From: Elusimicrobiota bacterium
GTDB taxonomy: Bacteria; Elusimicrobiota; Elusimicrobia; Elusimicrobiales; UBA9959
Length of the DNA stretch: 53,273 bases
Direction: 5' to 3'
Assembly: GCA_027340875.1 (NCBI GenBank)
Contig: DAIENX010000041.1
Location: 1 to 53,273 of the forward strand
This document shows positions 6,849 through 49,254 of this stretch, in pieces. Both the position numbers and the translations under genes were made by a program. Under the pieces are notes generated by a model. The model had not been told where the DNA came from. It did not search any database and worked only from the letters and a program-made list of their open reading frames with translations. Numbering within the stretch: the first letter of the stretch is position 1; each line of letters opens with the position of its first letter.

Positions 6849-6952
6849 CAGGCATGGGATAGCCCTGCCGCCGCATAGCGGATGGGGGGCCCCGCTTCGG
6901 GGGGAAACCACGGGAGGGTTTCCTACGCGGCGGAAGGGCGATCCCATGACTG
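6849..6952. repeat. ~30-bp imperfect inverted repeat enclosing two small hairpins
   Basis: CAGGCATGGGATAGCCCTGCCGCCGCATAG (6849-6878) pairs with CTACGCGGCGGAAGGGCGATCCCATGACTG (6923-6952). Confidence 0.75.
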
Positions 6953-6954
6953 GA

Positions 6955-8184
6955 TTATCCATAGCGTATCGCGTCCACAGGGCTGATCCTGGAAGCCCGC
7001 AGCGCCGGGTATACCGCGCTGAGCATGCAGAGCAGGTAGCTGACGGCCGCGGTGAGCAGTATATTGGAAAGCTTCAGCTGCACCGGCACCTTCGTCACGT
7101 AATAGATGTCCGACGGCAGCTCGATGACCGGATAAGCGGAGATGAAGACGGAGATCCCCACGCCCAGCAGCAGGCCCAACGTTATGCCGGTGAGAGCTAT
7201 CAGGTTCCCCTCCCACAGGAACACCTTCCTGACGAAGGACGGCCCGGCCCCCATCGCGCGCAGTATGCCGATATCCCGCAGCTTCTCCACGCTCATCATC
7301 AGCAGGTTGGAGGCGATGTTGAAGGTGGCCACCAGGATGATCAGCGCCAGCACCAGCGACATCACGAACTTCTCCAGCTTCAGCGCCGAGAAAAGCGTGC
7401 GGTTCATGTCGGCGTAGGTCTTCACGCTGTAGGCGAAGCCGAGCGTCTTGCGCAGAGCCGCCGCGGCGGCCGGCGCGTCATTTATGTCCCGGAGCCGCAC
7501 GCCGACGCCGTTGGCCCCGCCCGGCACTCCGAAGAAGTCTCCCGCTGCCGCGATGCCGCAGTAGGCCATGGTGTTGTCGAACTCGAAATAGCCGGTGCGT
7601 ATAAGGCCGGTCACGCGGAACTTCTTCATCTTCGGCAGCAGCCCCATGCCTGTCGTCGCCGCCCCCTGCGGCGAGACCAGCACCACGTCGTCGCCGGTCC
7701 AGAGCCCCAGGTGCCTGGCCAGCTCTTCGCACAGCACCAGCGCAGGAGGAGCATCCTTGACCGGCGAGAAAAGCCCGTCCCAGGACCCGCGCGTCAGGGA
7801 GGAGCGGAGGCTGTTAACCTTGAACTCGGCCTCCGGGGAAAAGCCTTTCACCACCACACCGGTGGAGCGGCCGTCGAACGTAAGTATCCCCTGCCCCAGC
7901 ACGAACGGGGACTCGGCCGCGGCATGTCCCTCCTTGCCCAGCACGGCCCTGATAACCTCGAGGTCGCGCGGCTTCATGCTGCCGTAGATGGTTATGTGGG
8001 CCTGCGCGTCTATTATCTTCTTCTTGATGTCGGACTGGAAGCCGTCCATGATGGCCAGCGTCACGATAAGCGCGGCGACACCGAGCGCCACCCCCGCCAC
8101 GCCGATGACCGTAGTGATCATGGCGAAAAGGCCCTTCCTCTTGGCAAGCAGGTACCGGCGGGCTATGAAGAATTCCGTGGACAT
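6955..8184 (-). CDS. LolC/E-family lipoprotein-releasing ABC permease
   Basis: FIARRYL start, GVALGVAALIVTLAIMDGF, NRTLFSALKLEK, DIGILRAMGA, YPALRAS...P.DAIRY. Confidence 0.9.
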   Translation of the reverse strand: MSTEFFIARRYLLAKRKGLFAMITTVIGVAGVALGVAALIVTLAIMDGFQSDIKKKIIDAQAHITIYGSMKPRDLEVIRAVLGKEGHAAAESPFVLGQGILTFDGRSTGVVVKGFSPEAEFKVNSLRSSLTRGSWDGLFSPVKDAPPALVLCEELARHLGLWTGDDVVLVSPQGAATTGMGLLPKMKKFRVTGLIRTGYFEFDNTMAYCGIAAAGDFFGVPGGANGVGVRLRDINDAPAAAAALRKTLGFAYSVKTYADMNRTLFSALKLEKFVMSLVLALIILVATFNIASNLLMMSVEKLRDIGILRAMGAGPSFVRKVFLWEGNLIALTGITLGLLLGVGISVFISAYPVIELPSDIYYVTKVPVQLKLSNILLTAAVSYLLCMLSAVYPALRASRISPVDAIRYG

Positions 8185-37950: not shown

Positions 37951-38886
37951 CTATTTCGCCAGGCGGCAGATGTCGCCGGCCTTCGGGGAAGGCCCGGCGG
38001 CCTTGGTCAGCTTCGCGATCGAGCAGTCGCCGGAGTCGCCGCAGTAGCGGTCCACCTCGGCGCGGCCTATGTACTGCTCCCTGTGGCCTATGACCAGGTT
38101 GGAGCGCGGGTCGCGTATCTCCGCGCCCTGGTGGTAGCAGTCGAGGTCCAGCCCCTCTTCCACCCCGGAATCCTGGCCGGCGTTGAGGTACATCTCGTCG
38201 CCGGAGGCGTCCGCTATCATGCAGGACCAGGGCTTCTTGTTTAGCTGGCTGGCGATGTTCGTGACGAACTGCACCACCGCGGCGCGCAGCGCCTCTCCCT
38301 CTAGGGTCTCGTCGTAGCCGCCCTTGGTCCCCATGCCGAGGAAGGACGCCTTGGTGCTCTTGGCCATGCCCTTGCCGGAATCGGCCAGTATCACCTGGCC
38401 GCTCTGCACGTCTATCAGGCGTATGTCCACGGTCACGTCGGCCACCTGGCGCTTGGACTGCGTCAGCAGGTAGTCGGACCCTTCCTTCTTCACGCCGAAC
38501 TGCGACACCGAGCCGACCACTATGGCCTCGAGGCCTAGTATCTGGCCCACCTTGGCCGCCGTCTGCGGGTCGGTCATTCCCTGGGACTGGAGCTTCTGCT
38601 CCTCCATGATCTTGTTGAGCTTGTCGCGCTCCACCACGATGAACTTGCCGGACTTGACCAGCTCGGTTATAAGTATGTCCGAAGCGGCGCCGCCGAGGCG
38701 GCCCTGCCCGTAGGCGGACTTGTTCTCGAACTCCACCACGCCGATGCGGCGCTTGGGCCCGGTGAAGTCGGACTTGACCTTCTTGGTCTCGTTGACGCTC
38801 AGCGCCTGCTGGGTCTTCACCGTCTTGGAAGGCGCGCAGGCGCCGGCCAGCACGGCCGCGGCGGCGAGCAGCATTAGTTTCCTCAT
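37951..38886 (-). CDS. CsgG/HfaB-family lipoprotein with FlgT-C-like tail
   Basis: Lipobox LAGAC; RIGVVEF, FIVVER, AAKVGQILG, DIRLIDVQSG; tail YLNAG..SG...IRDP. Confidence 0.82.
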   Translation of the reverse strand: MRKLMLLAAAAVLAGACAPSKTVKTQQALSVNETKKVKSDFTGPKRRIGVVEFENKSAYGQGRLGGAASDILITELVKSGKFIVVERDKLNKIMEEQKLQSQGMTDPQTAAKVGQILGLEAIVVGSVSQFGVKKEGSDYLLTQSKRQVADVTVDIRLIDVQSGQVILADSGKGMAKSTKASFLGMGTKGGYDETLEGEALRAAVVQFVTNIASQLNKKPWSCMIADASGDEMYLNAGQDSGVEEGLDLDCYHQGAEIRDPRSNLVIGHREQYIGRAEVDRYCGDSGDCSIAKLTKAAGPSPKAGDICRLAK

Positions 38887-38905
38887 AGTATTCCTCCTTG
38901 TCTCC

Positions 38906-39517
38906 CTACCGGCGGGGCAGGCGGTCCAGCGCGTTCCACGCCGCCGTCTCTGCCTCGCGTTTCAGCGGGGTCTTGAAAATGTTCTGCACCAGCTTCACGG
39001 CCAGCTGTTCAACGAAGGCCGCCTTGGCCTGCTCCTTGTCCAGATAGACCTTTACGTCCTTGCCGGAGCCTGTGCCCTCATAAAGCGTCTCCCCGGTGGA
39101 GGCCGACACTAGCTTCAGGTGCAGCTTGACGTTCTTGCGCACCACGAACCCCAGGTTCTGGAACGTAAAATCCTCCACGTCCCCGTAGCAGAGCAGGTCG
39201 GTCCCCAGCGCTTTGCCCAGTTCTTCCGGCTTAACCGCCGGCAGCTGCCCGCCTTCGGAGATGCCGAGCGATGAGAGCTTAGCGTCCACGTCCTCCCCGG
39301 CCAGCGGGGCGTAACCGCGTTTCGAGAATCCTTCTTCGGCCAGCTTGCGCAGTATCTCGTCGGCGTTGACGTCCGTGGTCTGATTGTCGAACGGCAGCAC
39401 CGCCACGCGCAGGTCGGCCGCCTCCCTGAGCGAAGGGGACACCAGATATCCTCCGCCGCCGGCGCAGGCGGCCAGCAGGGCGGCGGACAGAAGCAGGGCG
39501 GCGTTCCTGAACCTCAT
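38906..39517 (-). CDS. GNA1162/DUF799-like lipoprotein
   Basis: Lipobox LAAC; VAVLPFDNQT, KRGY, LGKALGTD...YG.V, LVSASTGETLY. Confidence 0.72.
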   Translation of the reverse strand: MRFRNAALLLSAALLAACAGGGGYLVSPSLREAADLRVAVLPFDNQTTDVNADEILRKLAEEGFSKRGYAPLAGEDVDAKLSSLGISEGGQLPAVKPEELGKALGTDLLCYGDVEDFTFQNLGFVVRKNVKLHLKLVSASTGETLYEGTGSGKDVKVYLDKEQAKAAFVEQLAVKLVQNIFKTPLKREAETAAWNALDRLPRR

Positions 39518-39520
39518 GCG

Positions 39521-40603
39521 TCAGTTGGGAATGGAGAAGAGTACCTGCCCGGGCCCCACCCCTTCCAGCTCGAGGCCCATCGCGTCGGTGCGGAGCAGCG
39601 CGCTGGCCATCTCGTGCAGGTCGCTCCTGGCCGGCACCGCCGAAAGGACGGCGCTGCCGTCGGAAAAGCTCTCCACGCGCAGGCCGGAAAGCTCGGGTCC
39701 CTGCAGCTGGTCCCTGAGCCGCTCCAGCCTGTCGAGGCTCCCGACGCCGACGACCTTGATCGTCACGGGCGCGGGCTTGTCGTTCAGGCGCGCCGTGCGG
39801 ACGGCCGCCTCCTGCGCCAGCATGTCCGCGGCGGAGGCCAGCGCCTTGGCCGCCGAGGCGGCCGCGGTGGACTCCACCGCGTTGGCCTGGCTGGAAAGAG
39901 AGAGCAGCTCGGCGCCGGCGGGGTCGTAGACCTTGAGGACGGCGTCGGCGCGGGAGGGATAGAAGCCGGTACCCAGCCCGGAGGCCGACTGCGAGACGGA
40001 GCTGACGGCCACCAGGACCAGGTCCGCGCCGTCTGCGGCGGCGGCCTCCACCAGGCCGGTATCGGGGCCGGCGAGCAGCGGCTCGTCGGCTTTCAGCTCC
40101 CTGAGCCTGAACTGGGAGCGTTTGGAGAACGCCTCGCTGAAAGCGGAATAGAAGGGCCTGCCGCCTGGGCCGCGCTGGGCGAAGACCGCCTCGGCCGAGG
40201 CCGCGCCCGGGCCTGCCAGCTTCATGCCGCGCAGCGCCGAGACCAGCTTGTCCAGCCGTATCCAGACGCGGGCTGCGACCCGGACGGAATCCCCGTCGCG
40301 CAGCTCGGAGAGCACCCTGGCCTTGGCCACGTAGAGCTGCGGCGTCTTCAGCAGGCCTATCTCCAGCAGCTCGCGGCTGCCGGCCCGCGCCGACTCCTCC
40401 ATGAAAAGGCCGGCGGCCCTCAGCACGGCGTTACGCTGGGCGTCCAGCGAGGCGCGCTCGCGGGCCGCGCCGGGACCGTCCAGCGGCGCGGAGCCCTCTG
40501 CGGAGATAGGCTCGGGGGAGCCTCCCAAAGCGGCCGGGGCCGGCGCGTGGGCGCAGGCGGCGGACAGTATGAGAGCTGGCAACAGCAGCGAGTATTTTTT
40601 CAT
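39521..40603 (-). CDS. lipoprotein with FlgT-N-like domain
   Basis: Start MKKYSLLL, lipobox SAAC; SAEGSA....AARERASLDAQRNAV..AAG pattern. Confidence 0.65.
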   Translation of the reverse strand: MKKYSLLLPALILSAACAHAPAPAALGGSPEPISAEGSAPLDGPGAARERASLDAQRNAVLRAAGLFMEESARAGSRELLEIGLLKTPQLYVAKARVLSELRDGDSVRVAARVWIRLDKLVSALRGMKLAGPGAASAEAVFAQRGPGGRPFYSAFSEAFSKRSQFRLRELKADEPLLAGPDTGLVEAAAADGADLVLVAVSSVSQSASGLGTGFYPSRADAVLKVYDPAGAELLSLSSQANAVESTAAASAAKALASAADMLAQEAAVRTARLNDKPAPVTIKVVGVGSLDRLERLRDQLQGPELSGLRVESFSDGSAVLSAVPARSDLHEMASALLRTDAMGLELEGVGPGQVLFSIPN

Positions 40604-40626: not shown

Positions 40627-42567
40627 TCAGGCCTCTTTCCTGCTTTTGGCTACCGGCAGCGCGAAGCAGAACCGGCAGCCGGAAGAGGGCTTGGACTCCA
40701 GCCAGATCTTGCCGCCGTGCTTCTCGACCACCGATTTGGAGATGGCGAGGCCGAGGCCCGTGCCGGACACCTGGCTCGCGCCGGCCTTGCCGCGGTAGAA
40801 CTTGTCGAAGACCAGCTTCTGCTCCTCGGGCGGGATGCCGGGGCCGGTGTCCTCCACGCAGATCACGACGGCCTCGCCCTTGTCCACGCTGCTGACGCTG
40901 ACCGCGGCCCCCTTGCCCGAATACTTGATGGCGTTTATGATCAGATTGTCCACCACCTGGGTGATCCACCGCGTGTCCGCCTGCACCGGCGGCAGCGGCT
41001 TGGGCGCGCCGTAGCGCAGCTCCACCCCGTGCTCCCTGGCCTTCAGCATCATCATCGAGACGGAGTTCCTGACCACCTCGGACATGTCCACGTTCTGCAT
41101 CTCCATCTCCACCTTGCCGTTGAGCCTGGAAAGGTCCAGCAGGTTGGAGATCAGGCTGCTGAGGCGGTTCACGGACTGGTCCGCGATGCCGAGGAAATGG
41201 GACTGTTGCTCGTTCAGCGGCCCCACCTCTCCGCTGAGAATAACGGAGATGAAGCCCTTTATCGTGGTCAGCGGGGTCTTCAGCTCGTGGCTGACGGTGG
41301 CCAGGAACTCGTCCTTGATCTTGTTGAGCTGGGCCAGCTCATTGGCGGTCTTCGAGAGGTTCTCATAGAGCGTGAACATCTCGATGATGATGGCCAGCTC
41401 GTCGGCGATTATAGACAGGAACTCGAGCTGGTCGGGCGTGAAGAAATCCTTGCGCTTGCTGCCGACCCGCATCACGCCGATGATCCTTTCGCGCAGGGAG
41501 ATCGGCACTATCATCAGGGAGTGTATCTCCCAGAGCTTGGCGTACTGGGTTATCACGTCGGGATCGTCCTGGGCGTCCGGGGAAATGAAAGGCTTCCGCG
41601 ACAGGAAGGTCCTCACCGAGGCGCTGCCGTGGTTGGAGAGCGGGATGCTGTAGAACATCCGCTCCGCGTCAGAAATGCCGTAGGCGCCGGGGCTTACGGT
41701 TAGCTCCCCTTTGGCCTCGTCGAAGAGCAGGCAGGCGACCACGTCGGCCTCCACCATCTTGGCGACGATGTTCAGGATGGCCGCGCAGCCGCCCTGCGCG
41801 TCCCCGCCGCCGGGGCCCGCCACGCGGGTGACGACTTCGTAAAGCGCCTTGCGCTCCCTGGCGCGCTGGATCAGCCTCGAGCCCGCCACATCCAGTTCCT
41901 TCACGACCGCGTTCAGCTCCTCTTTCAGGTGGTCGGTCTCCTTCCGCAGCGAGAAGACCTTGTCGAACACCCTGGAGATGGAGCCCAGCTGAGAGGCGAC
42001 GAAGCGCACGTAGGGCTGGGCGTCGTCGAAAGGATCGGGACGCGGCGCGCCGAAGAGCAGTATACGCTCCGCCGAGCCGGAGGCGGGGCTGAACGGGCAG
42101 GCCAGCGCCGCCCCGATGTCGAAGATGGAGAAGAGCTCCGCCACCTCGGCCGAGCCTGGCCCCCGCACGTCGTCAAGGCGCAGCAGCTCGCCTTCCGAGG
42201 AGCAGCGGTCCAGCGCCTCCCACTTGTAGGAGGGCAGCAGCTTGGGCTCCGCGTTGAAATGCTTCAGGTAATTGACCAGCTTCCACTGCCCGTTGCCTTT
42301 CTCGAACAGCAGTATCGAGGCGTCCGGAAAGGCCTTGTGCAGCTTGATCAGATAGAAATTGGTGATATCGCCGTAGTGCTCGGCTTGGTCCGGGGAGTAG
42401 GCCCTTTCGGCGGTCTCCTTGGCGAAAGAGGAGAAGTCGGCGAGCGCCTTCCGCGAGGAGCGCAGCGCGCCCTCCCTCGGCAGCACCTCGCGGAACTTCA
42501 GGTACCAGTAGGCCGCGAAAGAGCCCGCCGCTCCCAGCACCGCCGCGCCTATCAGTTCCCCGGTCAT
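40627..42567 (-). CDS. membrane-anchored GAF sensor histidine kinase
   Basis: One N-terminal TM; GAF (SLMIVPI...IIGVM); H-box VSHELKTPL, NLIINAIKY, DTGPGI, GTGLGL. Confidence 0.9.
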   Translation of the reverse strand: MTGELIGAAVLGAAGSFAAYWYLKFREVLPREGALRSSRKALADFSSFAKETAERAYSPDQAEHYGDITNFYLIKLHKAFPDASILLFEKGNGQWKLVNYLKHFNAEPKLLPSYKWEALDRCSSEGELLRLDDVRGPGSAEVAELFSIFDIGAALACPFSPASGSAERILLFGAPRPDPFDDAQPYVRFVASQLGSISRVFDKVFSLRKETDHLKEELNAVVKELDVAGSRLIQRARERKALYEVVTRVAGPGGGDAQGGCAAILNIVAKMVEADVVACLLFDEAKGELTVSPGAYGISDAERMFYSIPLSNHGSASVRTFLSRKPFISPDAQDDPDVITQYAKLWEIHSLMIVPISLRERIIGVMRVGSKRKDFFTPDQLEFLSIIADELAIIIEMFTLYENLSKTANELAQLNKIKDEFLATVSHELKTPLTTIKGFISVILSGEVGPLNEQQSHFLGIADQSVNRLSSLISNLLDLSRLNGKVEMEMQNVDMSEVVRNSVSMMMLKAREHGVELRYGAPKPLPPVQADTRWITQVVDNLIINAIKYSGKGAAVSVSSVDKGEAVVICVEDTGPGIPPEEQKLVFDKFYRGKAGASQVSGTGLGLAISKSVVEKHGGKIWLESKPSSGCRFCFALPVAKSRKEA

Positions 42568-42571
42568 AGCG

Positions 42572-44380
42572 TCAGACAAGGTCCATCAGCATCTTCACGT
42601 AGCCGGCCTTGGATTTGATCCTGCCGCAAGGCAGCCAGGCGCCCTTTACCAGGAAGCTGTCCAGGATCTTGAAGGTGATATGCCTGAACTCGGCCTCCTG
42701 AGAACCAAGCGCGGAGCTGGGCTGAGGGCCCAGGATCATGGCCCCGTTCACACTCTTCTCGCTGGCGAAATTGGCTATCTTGAACGGAACGCCGTAGAGC
42801 TCGTCCGGGTTGTACTCCTCCATGAACACCTGGCTCCACTCCGTGTTGAGGCGCAGCTCCTTGGCCCTCTCATGCAGATTATAGAGCAGGAACTGCGCCT
42901 CCCGGGGCATCCCCTTGGGATAGAACAGGCCCCATTTGAACCAGGCCGAGTCCTGCCTGGAGGGCTGCCAGGCAGAAGCGTGGCGAGCATCCTCCTCGGT
43001 CACCTCTCCGGAGACGGCGGGTTCGGTCAGGCCGAGCAGCATGTCCAGCAGCTGGGCGTGGGAAAGGCTGTTCATCGGGTTCACGATGAACCTCTCGAGC
43101 TTCTTCATGTCGTCCAGCGTCTTCGCGGCGTCGTTGAACGGCATCATGGAGCCGGCGAAGGCGTCGGTGATCTCCTGGTCTGAAAGTTTCACGTCCAGCC
43201 CCTGCATCAGCTGCGCGATGACGCTCTTGTAGGCCTGCGCGGCCGGCGGCTTGAGGTCCACCATCCAGCCCTGCGTGAACTCGAAACCGACCGACTCCTC
43301 CAGCCCGGCGAGGGCCTTGGGCGGGAAGACCGAGGTAAGTACAAGCTGCTTGTTCTGGGCCAGGAAGTCCCCAAGCCACTTGGAAAGGTATTTCTTGTTG
43401 GTCTCGGAGACCATCAGCAGGTGGATGTCGTCGATGATCATCACCTTGATGCCGGCGATGAACTCCTCCAGGCGGCCGATGGAGCCTTCCTTGACCGCCA
43501 TCTCTATGCCCTTGGAGAGCTTGATGCCGTCGGTGACGAAGATGTTGTTCTGGCCCATGGACGCGGCCAGCCCGTAGGAGATGGAGTTGACGAAATGAGT
43601 CTTGCCCGTGCCCGGGGGACCGGAGAGCAGCAGGGGGTTGTAGATGACGCCGGGATTCTCCACCACCGCCATGGCAGCCGCATGGGCGAAGCGGTTGTGA
43701 GAGCCGGCTATCAGGGTCTGGAAGCTGTAGGTGGGGATCAGCGGCAGCTCCATCGACCACTTCGCCCTGATGCGGGCGGAAACCGAGGGCGAGACGGCCT
43801 GTTCCTGGGGCGCCGCCTGCTGGGCGGTGACCGGAGCTTCCTGCGGCTTCTGCTTGGGCGAGGCCGAAGGCACGAACATGCCGCGGGGCCTGGTGACCGC
43901 GGGAGAATCCGGCTGCTGGGCCGAGGCCGCTGGCATGGCCGGCCCCGGGGCGGGAGCGGGGGCCGGCTTCGGAGGCTCGGCCTTGGGAACTGGAGCCGGG
44001 GCTGGCGCCGGTGCCGGCCTCGGAGGCTCGGCCTTGGGCGCGGGAGCCGGCGCCGGCTTAGGAGGCGCGGGAGCCGGCGCTTCCGCCTTCAGTTTCGGCT
44101 TCGGAGCTTCGAACGGGACCGCTTCCTCTGGGAACTCCTCTTCCTTGGCGGAGCTCAGCTCCGCCGCCACGGCCTTTAGCTTCTTCATCGTGTCCATCTC
44201 CAGCTTGGAGAGGTAGATGAGGAAGTTGAAATCCCCGGTGGTCTTCTCCGGGCGGGAACAGAGGCTGCCCAGCTTCTTCACGATGAGGAAAATGTCCTTC
44301 ATGTCTCCTTTTATCAGGAGCTTATGACGACTTGGGTTCTTATCGGTAGGCGCCGGGGCCACGTCCCATTTTTTGAGCAT
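42572..44380 (-). CDS. DnaA/Hda-derived AAA+ protein lacking the DnaA DNA-binding domain
   Basis: LIPTYSF...GSHNRFAHAAA.AV.ENPG.IYNPL...GPPGTGKTH and IIDDIH match DnaA domain III; N- and C-termini unrelated to DnaA. Confidence 0.8.
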   Translation of the reverse strand: MLKKWDVAPAPTDKNPSRHKLLIKGDMKDIFLIVKKLGSLCSRPEKTTGDFNFLIYLSKLEMDTMKKLKAVAAELSSAKEEEFPEEAVPFEAPKPKLKAEAPAPAPPKPAPAPAPKAEPPRPAPAPAPAPVPKAEPPKPAPAPAPGPAMPAASAQQPDSPAVTRPRGMFVPSASPKQKPQEAPVTAQQAAPQEQAVSPSVSARIRAKWSMELPLIPTYSFQTLIAGSHNRFAHAAAMAVVENPGVIYNPLLLSGPPGTGKTHFVNSISYGLAASMGQNNIFVTDGIKLSKGIEMAVKEGSIGRLEEFIAGIKVMIIDDIHLLMVSETNKKYLSKWLGDFLAQNKQLVLTSVFPPKALAGLEESVGFEFTQGWMVDLKPPAAQAYKSVIAQLMQGLDVKLSDQEITDAFAGSMMPFNDAAKTLDDMKKLERFIVNPMNSLSHAQLLDMLLGLTEPAVSGEVTEEDARHASAWQPSRQDSAWFKWGLFYPKGMPREAQFLLYNLHERAKELRLNTEWSQVFMEEYNPDELYGVPFKIANFASEKSVNGAMILGPQPSSALGSQEAEFRHITFKILDSFLVKGAWLPCGRIKSKAGYVKMLMDLV

Positions 44381-44382
44381 AA

Positions 44383-46377
44383 TCAGCGGACTATCAGGTC
44401 CGTGACCAGGTCCAGCGCGGCGGAATGGCTGAAACTGGAAGAATCATAGAACCGGAAGAAAGCCCCCGCGCCGTTGAACACGTTCTCCAGCTCGTAGACC
44501 TTGTCCTGGGGGACGGAACCGACGCAGATCAGGCCGTGCGCCTTGCTCTCGGTTAGGGACTGCAGCACCTGGTTGGGGTTCACGTCCGGATCGCACTCGG
44601 CCACGGAGGCGCGCCTGACGAACATCGGCTTGGTGGCGGACTTGAGGCAGATGGAGTCCAGTTCGGCGAGGATGGTGGCGCAGAGGGCCTTGTCCTCCTG
44701 GGAGTACAGGAACATGAGCGAGCGCACCCTCTCCTCCGGGATGCCGTCCGGCGCCTTCTTGGCCGCCAGGCCGGTAAGGTCTCCGGCCTGCGCCCTCGAC
44801 GTGCCGGAAGGGGGCGCCTGGAATATTACGGTCTTCTCCTCCTCCCCGGAGGAGCCTTGCTGAGGGGCTGCCACGAGCGTCTCGTCTCCGGACGCTCCGA
44901 AAACCGGGCCCGTCTCCGTGCCGGAGCCGCCCGGAATAGTCTCTCCGGCCGCGGCAGGCGCGGCGCCAAGCTCGAGGCCCTGACCGCCGGGAACGGTCTC
45001 GTCCGCGGCGGGAGGCTGGGACCCCAGCTCCAGCGAAGGCGAGAGTTCGAGACCCCCCGCCGCCGGCTCCGGCTGGGCGCCGAGTTCGCTGCGCGGAGAA
45101 AGCTCGAGGCCGCCGGCTTCCGGCTGGGCAGGCTGCTCCTGGCCGGCGGAAAGGTCCGTCGCGACGGGCGTTTCGGCCTGAGACTGCGAGAGTTCAAGGC
45201 CTTCCTGCTGGCCGGAAGGCAGCTCGAAATTCAGGGTCTCCTCGGCGGCCTGCGGCCGGTCCTCAGGCTGTCCGCCTTCGGAAGGCGAAACTATATCGGC
45301 CGGATGTTCGAACTCTATGCCGCCGCTTTCCGGCTGCGGCTGCTGCCCGGCAGAGGGCTCTATGGCGAAGGAATCGAACGGACTGGGAGCGGCCTCCGCC
45401 GCTGGCGCTTCCTCCGGCTGGACCTGCTCGGGGGCCGGCTCCTGCCGGCCGCCAAGTCCTGTTTCATCTTTCTTCTCGCGCTGGTCCATTATCTCCACCT
45501 CCGGCTGCGGCGCCGCCGCCTGGCCCAATCCCTGTATGGAAACTTCCCCGCTCTCCTCGATGGAGTGCACCGCCTCCGGCAGCACGCCGGCCTCCGGGAC
45601 CCGCGGCTGCTCCGCGCCGGCCGGAGTCTCGTCGGAGGAAAGCTGCAGCAGCGCGTCTATGTCAGGCACGCCGAAATCCCTGGTGCTCTCGTAGGCCGGA
45701 AGGGCGGCAGGCTTCTCCTGCAGCTCCAGCCCCGCCTCCAGCGCCGGCGGCACGGAGGACTGCGGAGGCTCCTCGGCTATAGTCTCGCTTTGCGCCGGCT
45801 CCAGGGGCGGGAGTTCCGCCTCGGGCAGCTCTTCGCGGGAAGAAGGGAGTTCCGCCGGGACTTCTTCCGCCGTCAGCTCCTGCGGGACCTGGTCCGCCGG
45901 CGGCGCCGCGGCCTCGGGGACCTGGTCGCCTACCGAAATCGCGGAGAACGGCTCCAATATCACGGTCTTGTCGCCGGCGTCGGGCGCCGGCGGCGCTTCG
46001 GCCGGCTGCTCCTGAACAGGCTCCGGCTGAAGCTCCGGCATGACGGCCTCCGGCGAGGACTGTGGCGGCTCGACCGGCTGCTCCGTCTCCGGCTCCGGAG
46101 CCCCTTCCGGCAGTCCCTGGAAAACCTGCATGACGACGGTCTTATCCCCCTCGTCCTGCCGGGGCGGCACAGCGTCCGACTCCCTGGCAGGCTCCGGGCC
46201 GGGCTGGTCCGGCTGCGCGGCGGGGACCGGCGAAGGAGCCGGCTTCTGCGGCTCATCCGGCTGCAGCTCCGGCATCTTTATACCGTCGAGAATGGACGGC
46301 ATCTTGTTCAGCAGGCCGTTGAGGTCAGACAATATCTCGTCTATAGACTCTCTTTTCTTGTCCGGTTTCTCGTCCAT
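44383..46377 (-). CDS. large acidic Pro/Glu-rich disordered protein with folded C-terminal domain
   Basis: 664 aa; short N-terminal helix ESIDEILSDL, about 500 aa low-complexity region, ~115-aa alpha/beta C-terminus. Confidence 0.8.
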   Translation of the reverse strand: MDEKPDKKRESIDEILSDLNGLLNKMPSILDGIKMPELQPDEPQKPAPSPVPAAQPDQPGPEPARESDAVPPRQDEGDKTVVMQVFQGLPEGAPEPETEQPVEPPQSSPEAVMPELQPEPVQEQPAEAPPAPDAGDKTVILEPFSAISVGDQVPEAAAPPADQVPQELTAEEVPAELPSSREELPEAELPPLEPAQSETIAEEPPQSSVPPALEAGLELQEKPAALPAYESTRDFGVPDIDALLQLSSDETPAGAEQPRVPEAGVLPEAVHSIEESGEVSIQGLGQAAAPQPEVEIMDQREKKDETGLGGRQEPAPEQVQPEEAPAAEAAPSPFDSFAIEPSAGQQPQPESGGIEFEHPADIVSPSEGGQPEDRPQAAEETLNFELPSGQQEGLELSQSQAETPVATDLSAGQEQPAQPEAGGLELSPRSELGAQPEPAAGGLELSPSLELGSQPPAADETVPGGQGLELGAAPAAAGETIPGGSGTETGPVFGASGDETLVAAPQQGSSGEEEKTVIFQAPPSGTSRAQAGDLTGLAAKKAPDGIPEERVRSLMFLYSQEDKALCATILAELDSICLKSATKPMFVRRASVAECDPDVNPNQVLQSLTESKAHGLICVGSVPQDKVYELENVFNGAGAFFRFYDSSSFSHSAALDLVTDLIVR

Positions 46378-46469: not shown

Positions 46470-47387
46470 CTAAGGACGCCTGATGAGGTCGCGGAGCAGC
46501 AGGGCCTCCCTGGCGTTCTCTGCCTGGGGCCCCCTCAGCGCGGCTTTCAGCTCAGGACCGGCCTCCGGCAGGGAGGAATAGCCGAGGCAGGAAACCGCCT
46601 CGGCCGCGAGGCCCCCCCCGGCGGAAGCCAGGCGGGACAGGTAGACGAAGCCCTTCCTGTCCCCTAGCCGCGACAAAGCGCAGGCGGCGTAAAGCCGGTC
46701 CTCCTTGCCGGGGCCCAGGTCCAGCGCCTCCCGCATTTTCGGCTGCAGGTCCTTTAACCCGGCCATGGACGAAAGCAGGAAACCGGCGCCGCGCAGTTCC
46801 GGCGCCTTTTCAGCGGCCAGGCCGGCGCTGATATCGCGTATGCGCCCTTCTAAAGGGCCGGCGTCGAAACCGAGCAGCACGGCCATGCCCGCCTCTATGG
46901 CGGCCTGGCTCCTGGCGGCCGGCACGGCCGAAGCCGACGCCGCCAGCAGCCTGTCGAAGATCTCCCTCGAGGCTACGGGGTCCTTCTCGGCGCGCAGCCA
47001 GGACCCGGCCGCCTTGGCCGCCGCGTAGGCCACCTTCTCCTTTTCGCTCGAAAGCAGGCGCAGCGCGTCCATTTTGTCGGATACCGGCAGGAAGCGCTGG
47101 GCGGACATCTTATCCAGCGAATAAACGGCGCCGCCGTAAGCCGAGAAGACCGTCTCCTTGCGCGGCTCAGGGAGCGCCGGTTTCGCAGCGCTGTGGTGCA
47201 GCCCGCGGTAGAGCACGAAGGCGCCGCAGGCCAGCAGTATCAGCCCGGGCGCCAGGTCCGGGACCGCACGCCGCCGGCGCGGTTCGGGCTCGGCGGTACA
47301 GGCGACCGCTGCCAGGTCCCGGCCGCAGATGGCGCATTTATCCCCGGGGCCGCGGTTGACGTAGCCGCACGACGGACATTTCTTCAC
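46470..47387 (-). CDS. zinc-ribbon, TM and HEAT-like repeat protein
   Basis: CPSC-x10-CAIC, hydrophobic helix, Ala-rich helical repeats; GTG start overlapping the mtaB stop. Confidence 0.7.
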   Translation of the reverse strand: MKKCPSCGYVNRGPGDKCAICGRDLAAVACTAEPEPRRRRAVPDLAPGLILLACGAFVLYRGLHHSAAKPALPEPRKETVFSAYGGAVYSLDKMSAQRFLPVSDKMDALRLLSSEKEKVAYAAAKAAGSWLRAEKDPVASREIFDRLLAASASAVPAARSQAAIEAGMAVLLGFDAGPLEGRIRDISAGLAAEKAPELRGAGFLLSSMAGLKDLQPKMREALDLGPGKEDRLYAACALSRLGDRKGFVYLSRLASAGGGLAAEAVSCLGYSSLPEAGPELKAALRGPQAENAREALLLRDLIRRP

Positions 47388-48628
47388 CGGACGGCCTCCG
47401 CCAAGCAGCACCCGGCGCGGGCCGCCGTGACCCTGCAGTCGAACAAGGTCCCCGGCCTGCGGTGGCCTTCCAGCTCGACGTTGACGAAATTAGAGGCCAG
47501 CGCCTGGCAGCGCCCCGCCTTGTTCCGGAGAGCCAGCACGGACAGTTCTCTGCCCAGCTGCGAGGCGGCGAAGGCGGCGCGCAGCTCGCCGTCCAGCCGC
47601 CGCAGCGCCGCCGAGCGCGACGCTACCGTTCCGGGCGGCAGCGGCTTCAGCGCGGCCGCCCTGGTCCCCGGCCGCGGCGAGAAGCTGAAGACGTGGAGGC
47701 CGGAAAGGCCCAGCCCGCGCACGAAGGCGAGCCCGGCGGTGAAATCCTCGTCCGTCTCGGTGGGATAGCCGGCGATGATGTCCGCGTATATCCCCACTCC
47801 GGGGAAAAGCTTCCGCAGCTCGCGGACCTTCGCCGCGTAGCGGCCCGTGTCGAACGGACGCGACATCTCCCCGAGCACCTTATCGGAACCGGCCTGCAGC
47901 GGAAGGTGGAAATAGTCGCAGAACTTCCCGCCGCCGGCGCAAAGCACGGTAAGCAGGCCGGGAGTGAGCTCTCCGGGCTCTATGGACGAAAAACGCACGC
48001 GGAAATCCCCGCTCAGGGAGAGCAGCCGCTTTACCAGCCCTGCCAAGTCCGTACCGGTTTTCGGGCAGCGGTATCTGCCCAGCCTGGTGCCGCAGAGCAC
48101 CAGCTCGGAAAAGCCGCCTTCAACGAGCCGCGAGGCTTCGGAAACGGCGGCCTCCAGCGGTTTGGACTTCAGCTCGCTGCGCGCCAGGTTCACCAGGCAG
48201 TAGGCGCATTTCAGGTCGCAGCCGTCCTGCACCTTCACGAAGGCCCTGGCCTTGCCGTGGAACTTCGTGACCGGGAAAAAGTCCGCGCCCGTCTCCCCGC
48301 CGCAGAAGGCGGAAGTTATCTTCTCTTTATCGGAGTTGGAGAAAAGGGAGGCCCGGGGCGCGGCCCGCAGTATCTTCTCCGGCTCCAGCGTGGCCAGGCA
48401 GCCGGTGACGGCAATGGAAGCTTTCGGGTTGGCGGCCGCGGTCCTGCGCAGGAAGGCCAGGCAGTCCCGGTCCGCCTTGGCCGTCACCGAGCAGGTGTTC
48501 AGCACCACCAGGTCTGCCTCTTCCGGCGCGGCTGCGGCCGTATGCCCCATGGCGGCGAACTTCTCGCGGAGGCTTTCGGTCTCCACCTGGTTCACGCGGC
48601 AGCCTACGGTCTTGAAATATACTTTCAT
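47384..48628 (-). CDS. mtaB: tRNA t6A37 methylthiotransferase (MiaB/MtaB radical SAM)
   Basis: GCRVNQ, NTCSVT, VTGC, KVQDGCDLKCAYC, SSIEP, HVFSFSPRPGT. Confidence 0.88.
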   Translation of the reverse strand: MKVYFKTVGCRVNQVETESLREKFAAMGHTAAAAPEEADLVVLNTCSVTAKADRDCLAFLRRTAAANPKASIAVTGCLATLEPEKILRAAPRASLFSNSDKEKITSAFCGGETGADFFPVTKFHGKARAFVKVQDGCDLKCAYCLVNLARSELKSKPLEAAVSEASRLVEGGFSELVLCGTRLGRYRCPKTGTDLAGLVKRLLSLSGDFRVRFSSIEPGELTPGLLTVLCAGGGKFCDYFHLPLQAGSDKVLGEMSRPFDTGRYAAKVRELRKLFPGVGIYADIIAGYPTETDEDFTAGLAFVRGLGLSGLHVFSFSPRPGTRAAALKPLPPGTVASRSAALRRLDGELRAAFAASQLGRELSVLALRNKAGRCQALASNFVNVELEGHRRPGTLFDCRVTAARAGCCLAEAVR

Positions 48629-48831: not shown

Positions 48832-49254
48832 ATAGCTAAAATATTGGTAGTAGAAGATGAGAAGTCCGTACAGGACCTCGTAAAATACTGTCTCGAAGCC
48901 GACGGTTACATGGTGGTAACCGCCGATGACGGAAAGATGGCCAGCAGCTGGATAAAGGAGATCAAGTTCGACCTCGCCATACTGGACCTCTGCCTGCCGG
49001 ACGCCAATGGCATAGAGATCTGCGCTTCTATAAAGGAAGACCCCAAGACCCGTGCCACGCCGGTGATAATCCTGACCGGCAACTCCTCCAACGAGGCCAG
49101 GATCAAGAGCAATCTCGAAGCCAAAGCGGACCTCTTCCTGAACAAGCCGATCTCGCCGGACGACCTCAGGAGCGCCGTGAAGACGATGCTGGCCGCGGCG
49201 GAGAAGAAGAAGCTGCTGCTGCGCAACTCCATCCGCACCAAATTAGGGGAATGA
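48832..49254 (+). CDS. single-domain response regulator, probable ATA start
   Basis: (M)AKILVVEDE, LDLCLPDANG, IILTG, NKP. Confidence 0.8.
   Translation: MAKILVVEDEKSVQDLVKYCLEADGYMVVTADDGKMASSWIKEIKFDLAILDLCLPDANGIEICASIKEDPKTRATPVIILTGNSSNEARIKSNLEAKADLFLNKPISPDDLRSAVKTMLAAAEKKKLLLRNSIRTKLGE

Follow-up and report, generated by a model that had tools for sequence, protein, structure and literature searches.

The window, that is, the whole 53,273-nucleotide stretch of DNA analysed here, carries on its minus strand a gene (42572..44380) encoding P0001, a 602-aa DnaA paralogue built from an N-terminal domain, a Pro/Ala-rich linker, a DnaA-type AAA+ domain and a MID-like C-terminal domain. The gene directly upstream on the same strand (44383..46377), here called the sister, encodes a 664-aa protein, and its stop lies 2 nt before the ATG of P0001. 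Downstream, also on the minus strand, lies a gene for a 646-aa histidine kinase with GAF, HisKA and HATPase domains and the His box present (40627..42567); its ATG lies 4 nt after the stop of P0001.

Gene model and domain layout

The GC3 of the P0001 ORF is 0.85 in its frame versus 0.61 and 0.43. The protein starts at M1: the M..W start found there is conserved among relatives, and a start at M27 given by one database call (P0002, 576 aa) was rejected for this reason.

An AlphaFold2 model computed with 79 sequences (mean pLDDT 84.7) contains three folded parts, at residues 1-80, about 212-451 and 478-602. The first (44141..44380, minus strand, as are all features of this gene) has a predicted beta-beta-alpha-beta-beta-alpha arrangement; it matched no Pfam family, and its nearest predicted folds in the Atlas include ACT-like ones, all under the naming bar. 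It is followed by a linker of 30% Pro and 24% Ala, modelled with low confidence (residues 81-205; 43766..44140), by the AAA+ domain and lid with the fold of DnaA domain III (residues 212-451; 43028..43747), and by a C-terminal domain of four beta-alpha units, hereafter the tail, which replaces domain IV (residues 478-602; 42575..42949). The first-pass annotation, made from the sequence by eye, had described a new N-terminal domain with a Pro/Ala linker and another domain in place of domain IV, and both descriptions hold. Pfam recovered Bac_DnaA at residues 216-374 (E 3e-27), with no match to DnaA_N or Bac_DnaA_C at E<=0.1, and the TIGR00362 score of 121.8 bits falls under the curated cut-off of 343.9.

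P0001 was compared with 62 paralogue loci, hand-picked to span 29 family-level labels (f1, to which P0001 belongs, f2 and so on). The N-terminal domain is present on 48/62 of the paralogue ORFs. An f28 genome carries, upstream of its paralogue, a gene in which this domain is fused to GGDEF, a diguanylate cyclase (L095:12480-13934, minus strand).

The genome of P0001 contains exactly two Bac_DnaA matches: P0001 itself and a canonical 449-aa DnaA on contig C65, with all motifs and domain IV, whose next ORF was read by eye as dnaN. This separate dnaA supports the initial view that P0001 is not an initiator. A DciA match over the cut-off lies near dnaA (G000:C65:190343), and 32/32 relatives tested have a Bac_DnaA_C match that exceeds the cut-off.

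Motifs kept and lost in the ATPase domain

The best structural match of the middle part of P0001 is DnaA domain III (Z 22.6-23.0; for 8bv3, Z 23.0, rmsd 3.3, 233 aligned), and Foldseek agrees; DnaC (Z 17.4), IstB (17.2) and Hda (16.4) match more weakly. With DnaA (TIGR00362; PF00308 and PF08299; PDB 8bv3, 8btg, 1l8q, 2z4r), P0001 shares the domain III fold, the lid, both Walker motifs and the sequence at the start of domain III, whereas domains I and IV have no match and two new end domains stand instead. Sequence identity is 28% over 190 aa to the DnaA of its own genome and about 26% to the DnaA of its family.

Residues were mapped by aligning P0001 to E. coli DnaA from NC_000913.3, with D269, R281, R285 and R334 taken as sensor I, box VII, arginine finger and sensor II, respectively, as in the available text of PMC4245941. 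Walker A (G254-H262; 43595..43621) is intact, and Walker B (I315-H320; 43421..43438) keeps both Asp; K178, T179, D235 and D236 of E. coli correspond to K260, T261, D317 and D318. At the sensor I position (43325..43336) D269 is replaced by V351, and at the box VII position (43277..43303) R281 is replaced by S363 and the arginine finger R285 by E367. At the sensor II position (43121..43141) R334 is replaced by N416. The earlier reading of DnaA-like Walker motifs, an altered sensor I and the loss of both box VII arginines is thus borne out; its claim that sensor II is absent stands for the motif, but not for the lid helices bearing it, which remain in the model. The R285 column of the nearest clade is variable (K 8, R 6, S 6, Q 4, E 2, H 2; n=28), so the Glu of P0001 is no fixed replacement.

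The ssDNA-binding residues of DnaA (B. subtilis I190, K222 and T225, placed at E. coli 211, 243 and 246 by a constant offset of 21) are E293, S325 and N328 in P0001. Both protomer faces are altered as well, with R227, R281, R285, L290, R302, E335 and G338 all replaced. Overall, the initial observation of a DnaA-like pocket, lost arginines and no domain IV is confirmed, and neither equivalent arginines nor a DNA-binding domain was found in P0001.

Sixty paralogues were scored for these motifs, after exclusion of three ORFs with a broken or atypical Walker A and addition of the window protein. All four of D269, R281, R285 and R334 are kept in 26/27 paralogues of f11, f15, f18 and f21-f37, as they are in 33/34 canonical DnaAs; f4 has lost only R281 (5/5), and none of the 28 members from f1, f2, f3, f8, f10, f13, f14 and f17 keeps all four. 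These intact and degenerate groups were set after the motifs had been seen, and trees separate them independently. In quick trees, built with no bootstrap and one outside DnaA and thus not dating the duplication, one branch (SH-aLRT 99-100) divides the paralogues from the canonical DnaAs, and a long branch (SH-aLRT 99) sets the degenerate group apart, also after removal of four long-branch rows. As read from alignment and trees, arginine loss is secondary and belongs to one long-branch clade of 28 that includes P0001; the degenerate state is read as derived because the root is assumed at canonical DnaA.

Within this clade the pocket is conserved (K260 28/28, the Asp pair 27/28, N229-R230 28/28), and new residues are characteristic of it: His replaces the Gln of the DnaA Walker B (H320, 26/28), N328 occurs in 26/28, and G285 is also newly fixed. 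At the protomer interface the L290 position is Trp in 22/28, and R302 is kept in 3/28. The suggestion of a nucleotide-binding switch would fit the pocket kept across these sequences; its weak point is sensor I, since D269 is reported, in the accessible part of PMC4245941, to play an important part in binding nucleotide stably, and binding by P0001 may be weak because this residue is lost.

The non-degenerate paralogues share about 51% identity with the DnaA of their own family and retain the interface (L290 32/32, R302 31/32, E335 30/32). The site of E. coli K243 holds Ser (30) or Ala (2) in these 32 proteins and Lys or Arg in 32/34 canonical DnaAs. In B. subtilis, the substitution K222S is reported to block strand separation while ATP binding and oligomerisation are kept (bioRxiv 10.1101/2022.03.18.484894, in the text available). 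By analogy, an intact-type paralogue would polymerise without opening DNA.

The linker between ATPase and tail, measured by proxy from Walker A, spans 12-23 residues in the degenerate clade (n=28) and has a median of 89, up to 414, in the others (n=33, including one lid-less member that scores 0). Such a short, fixed linker fits a compact monomer whose tail may be docked on the lid. One paralogue seemingly lacks the whole lid and sensor II while keeping D269 and R285 (L067:2520-4055, minus strand).

The MID-like tail, the sister gene and the neighbourhood

Folded alone, the tail gives an alpha/beta domain with pLDDT 94. When this predicted model was compared with 48,161 chains, Argonaute/PIWI MID domains filled the top 15 rows (Z 10.2-12.4; structures compared, PDB 6kr6, 4p1z, 6t5t), with Piwi MID at Z 12.4, rmsd 3.1 and 117 aligned, and MIWI MID at Z 11.7, rmsd 2.5 and 114 of 127. 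The next folds are LacI-type sugar-binding domains and lumazine synthase (Z 9.7-9.5), and this margin of about 2.7 Z units marks the tail fold as a common one with a preference for MID. A profile of the paralogue tails matched an alignment of Thermus Argonaute MID (20-odd sequences) at 76% and one of the sister tails at 84%, while a shallower sister profile reached only 14%; receiver and LacI controls gave at most 4% and reversed profiles 0.1%. A language-model search also linked the tail to MID (scores 0.77-0.81), which we take as a lead only. Searching PDB sequences with the tail returned nothing below E 0.29, Pfam assigned the tails to no consistent family, 36 tails gave no Pfam match to a receiver domain, and hhalign of the tail against the 83 receivers of the same genome gave 0.6-3.8%. 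Taken together, the predicted structure, the language-model lead and a profile match of moderate strength mark the tail as MID-like and probably homologous to MID.

Thermus Argonaute (TtAgo) holds the guide 5'-phosphate through R418, K422, S432, Q433 and K457, according to the available text of PMC4390867. At the equivalent tail positions, mapped by profile alignment to TtAgo rather than by superposition, no conserved basic residue was found. R418 aligns with R566 of P0001 in a column that is Arg in only 8/62 tails, and neither the R418 nor the K422 position is conserved as basic; Q433 is retained in 19/23 intact-type tails and is Ala in P0001, which ends before the equivalent of K457. PAZ and PIWI are absent, the ORF stopping at the MID-like domain. 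Judged by these residues, the tail is no guide-binding MID, because those that hold the 5'-phosphate are unmatched by conserved basic ones. P0001 is neither an initiator, nor an Hda, nor an Argonaute.

The sister protein has an N-terminal amphipathic helix, read by eye, an acidic Pro-rich linker of about 500 aa and a MID-like C-terminal domain (44386..44748, minus strand) homologous to the tail of P0001 (hhalign 98.9%, E 1.3e-17). The helix that opens it, before the long acidic Pro-rich region, is conserved (46288-46350, minus strand), and we presume that this layout resembles PopZ or microcompartment encapsulation peptides. The sister of f11, f15, f21, f22, f24 and one f6 locus bears the N-domain too, which makes it a protein with both end domains but no ATPase; f4, f11 and f15 have a paralogue without the N-domain. 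Three loci (L058, L094, L096) carry a tandem pair of sister genes, each with N-domain and MID-like tail.

Among the 62 loci the sister gene is present in 42 and a PilT/PilU-family ATPase gene lies upstream in 37 (59 assessable), while the kinase is downstream in 42/60 assessable loci and missing next to 18/60. Microcompartment genes occur in 21 loci and tpiA in 34, within 9.5 kb upstream. These counts show persistence and carry no statistical test, because related genomes are not independent. In the genome of P0001, pilT is not adjacent. The paralogue is kept in 97/97 f2 genomes, yet in the seven f2 loci sampled none of sister, kinase and pilT lies next to it, and a search for the domain of the sister, run without a positive control, came back empty in 5/5 f2 genomes; f2 paralogues often carry a linker of over 600 residues. 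The partners of the paralogue are therefore not obligatory. No conserved response regulator occurs in the block, and the order of the genes may go back to a larger ancient operon with tpiA, deoC and rpiB among its members.

Several features accompany the block. In the window, the sister is preceded by a zinc-ribbon/HEAT-like gene (46470-47411, minus strand), an arrangement shared by close relatives only, and a stand-alone receiver protein lies at 48844-49254 (plus strand), a possible but unconserved kinase partner. The kinase is followed here and in many relatives by three envelope genes (37951-40600, minus strand): one unassigned, one for a GNA1162-like lipoprotein and one of the CsgG family. 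Directly upstream of pilT and the operon, L043-L052, L056-L058, L067 and L069 have a microcompartment cluster that includes deoC, rpiB, aldehyde dehydrogenase and phosphate acyltransferase; a small unassigned ORF of ~100 aa separates its last shell gene from pilT.

Microcompartment positioning as a general role was rejected on the finding of shell genes in only 90/301 genomes, and in 5/97 in f2. A strict tie to type IV pili was likewise rejected, since PilM does not track the paralogue. PilM is present in families in which the tail domain was not found (f5 4/4, f6 2/2, f9 1/1, f19 33/60) and is mostly weak in f2, where the domain is always found; weak PilM matches may be related ATPases.

Candidate functions and family range

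We give about even chances to a reading of P0001 as a monomeric subunit outside replication, either a nucleotide-binding switch or a scaffold, which pairs with its sister through their MID-like domains and tunes the kinase. Its observed basis is the architecture, the residue losses, the gene order and the tree position; beyond the conserved nucleotide pocket, each step of the mechanism is inferred. The family would have arisen when a protein of N-domain, disordered linker and MID-like domain was joined to DnaA domain III, the presumed ancestral type being still encoded next door and complete in several families. Most families would then have kept the residues for ATP-dependent oligomerisation with Ser at the ssDNA-binding K222/K243 site, and the clade of P0001 would have lost the interface and catalytic arginines while keeping the pocket and a short, fixed tail linker. 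A nucleotide in the pocket, which P0001 itself would turn over hardly or not at all, would determine where the tail sits relative to the lid. Pairing would follow between the tail and the homologous domain of the sister, and this pairing may tune or localise the GAF kinase, ancestrally beside a PilT-type motor.

This signalling reading is supported by a pocket kept under strong divergence while the interface was lost, by sister and kinase genes 2 and 4 nt away together with the homology of both tails, and by the N-domain copy fused to GGDEF. Counted against it are the non-obligatory partners, f2 without the neighbours, a gene order that may simply be inherited, the possible weakness of binding after loss of D269, pilT not being adjacent in this genome and the lack of a conserved response regulator in the block.

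An unlikely alternative, though one with several points in its favour, is a metabolite sensor of nucleoside or sugar-phosphate catabolism, in which a nucleotide or sugar phosphate would be bound by the tail, with the signal relayed through the ATPase domain. It draws on tpiA in 34/62 loci, on deoC, rpiB, a microcompartment cluster or a phosphorylase as frequent neighbours, on the retention of tpiA and deoC upstream in f2 after the loss of sister, kinase and pilT, and on the LacI-type sugar-binding domains as the next-best tail folds after MID. However, catabolic genes were not found within ~8 kb upstream in the window or in 5/5 f1 loci, shell genes are sparse, with f2 nearly devoid of them, and the MID pocket positions hold no conserved basic residue.

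The boldest version of the signalling idea takes the tail as a true homologue of Argonaute MID, outside any Argonaute and fused to a DnaA ATPase: the MID-like pair would sense a nucleic-acid end or nucleotide and act through the ATPase on the kinase and the pilus motor, the family having gone stepwise from polymerising ATPase to monomeric sensor. We regard this as rather improbable.

Two further readings are doubtful to a similar degree. The first-pass annotation had proposed a dominant-negative cap for the true DnaA; such a regulator would join the DnaA filament and end it or alter its nucleotide state. DnaA domain III is indeed the closest fold, and co-assembly is plausible for non-degenerate members, with their kept interface and high identity to their own DnaA, so that a cap is more plausible for intact-type members than for P0001. 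For P0001 it is poorly supported: both faces are replaced, identity to the family's DnaA is low, the gene is not near dnaA or dnaN, unlike dnaA in its dnaA-dnaN locus, and the genes conserved around it are those of signalling and pili. Two single-contig genomes with one Bac_DnaA match also indicate that the gene is dispensable in some lineages. The second is DNA uptake, with a MID-like tail that holds a DNA end and a protein that couples pilus retraction to the processing of incoming DNA. The MID fold, pilT upstream in 37/62 loci and a YifB/Mg-chelatase-family ATPase gene within 8 kb downstream in 19/62, usually followed by dprA, would agree with it. Against it, yifB-dprA-topA is a common gene block anyway, PilM occurs in families without the domain and is mostly weak in f2, which always has it, and the 5'-phosphate residues are not kept.

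A DnaC/DnaI-like helicase loader or an Hda-like inactivator is largely excluded. DnaC, DnaI and IstB (PDB 3ec2, 8q3w) are, like P0001, DnaA-clade ATPases reused for another job, and Hda (TIGR03420; PDB 3bos) shares with P0001 the lack of domain IV. For the N-terminal beta-clamp-binding motif of Hda, a comparison by eye gives a mixed picture: the stretch before the P0001 ATPase has LPL as in the E. coli Hda N-terminus, but not its Gln. DnaC, DnaI and IstB match less well, at Z about 17 versus 23, and no transposase was seen next to the P0001 gene. Hda retains the arginine finger, as first stated and confirmed in our alignment, along with the sensor I Asp and sensor II Arg, none of which P0001 has; E. 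coli Hda has Arg at the Walker A Lys site, where P0001 keeps Lys, and the TIGR03420 score is 25.2 bits against a cut-off of 194.8. DciA, present in this genome near dnaA, is reported in the available text of PMC5109545 to exclude dnaC/dnaI. A decaying relic without function, suggested by the long branch and lost catalytic residues, is hardly credible for a gene with invariant pocket residues whose tail is present in 33/33 f1 and 97/97 f2 genomes, small ones included.

The tail profile matched 226/301 Elusimicrobiota genomes, a few of them weakly, and was not found in f19 (0/60), f5 (0/4), f6 (0/2 sampled) or f9 (0/1). The family is small, with 246 clusters at 50% identity among 1.84 billion, and its named relatives are Elusimicrobiota, as are the three with a taxon name among 10 low-ranking clusters checked. 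A scan of 185,579 species genomes, with patterns that came from Elusimicrobiota and would miss distant forms, gave 60 loci: 56 have titles naming Elusimicrobia or Endomicrobia, three read 'bacterium' and one names Ignavibacteria. No description of the family was found in the literature at title and abstract level, subscription papers and supplements aside; as far as our searches reach, this variant of the DnaA clade has not been described before.

DnaA-clade ATPases outside initiation, such as Hda, DnaC and IstB, still act on DNA transactions; unlike them, the P0001 family appears to have left these. Stages of this change are visible within one phylum, from a replaced DNA-binding domain through a replaced ssDNA-binding lysine to the loss of the arginines, which provides natural variants with which to test what residues an initiator needs. 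The presence of a MID-like domain in two neighbouring proteins that are not Argonautes also bears on the origin of MID. Several members carry the database name 'chromosomal replication initiator protein DnaA', a label that would lead origin prediction and marker-gene trees astray.

Among the genomes matched by the tail profile, G024 has only one DnaA-type gene, and G102 holds two paralogue copies on different contigs (L041, L042). A second Bac_DnaA match in a 260-aa frame (G008:C47:14626-15099), from a genome that gave no match to the tail, is possibly a truncated paralogue, and Bac_DnaA matches in two pieces ~6 kb apart in an f19 genome (G166:C1:331-618 and 6929-7114) may reflect a split canonical dnaA. 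Finally, G154, G158 and G217 each have six or seven matches to DnaA domain IV, most in ~335-aa frames, perhaps a mobile-element protein with a related helix-turn-helix.
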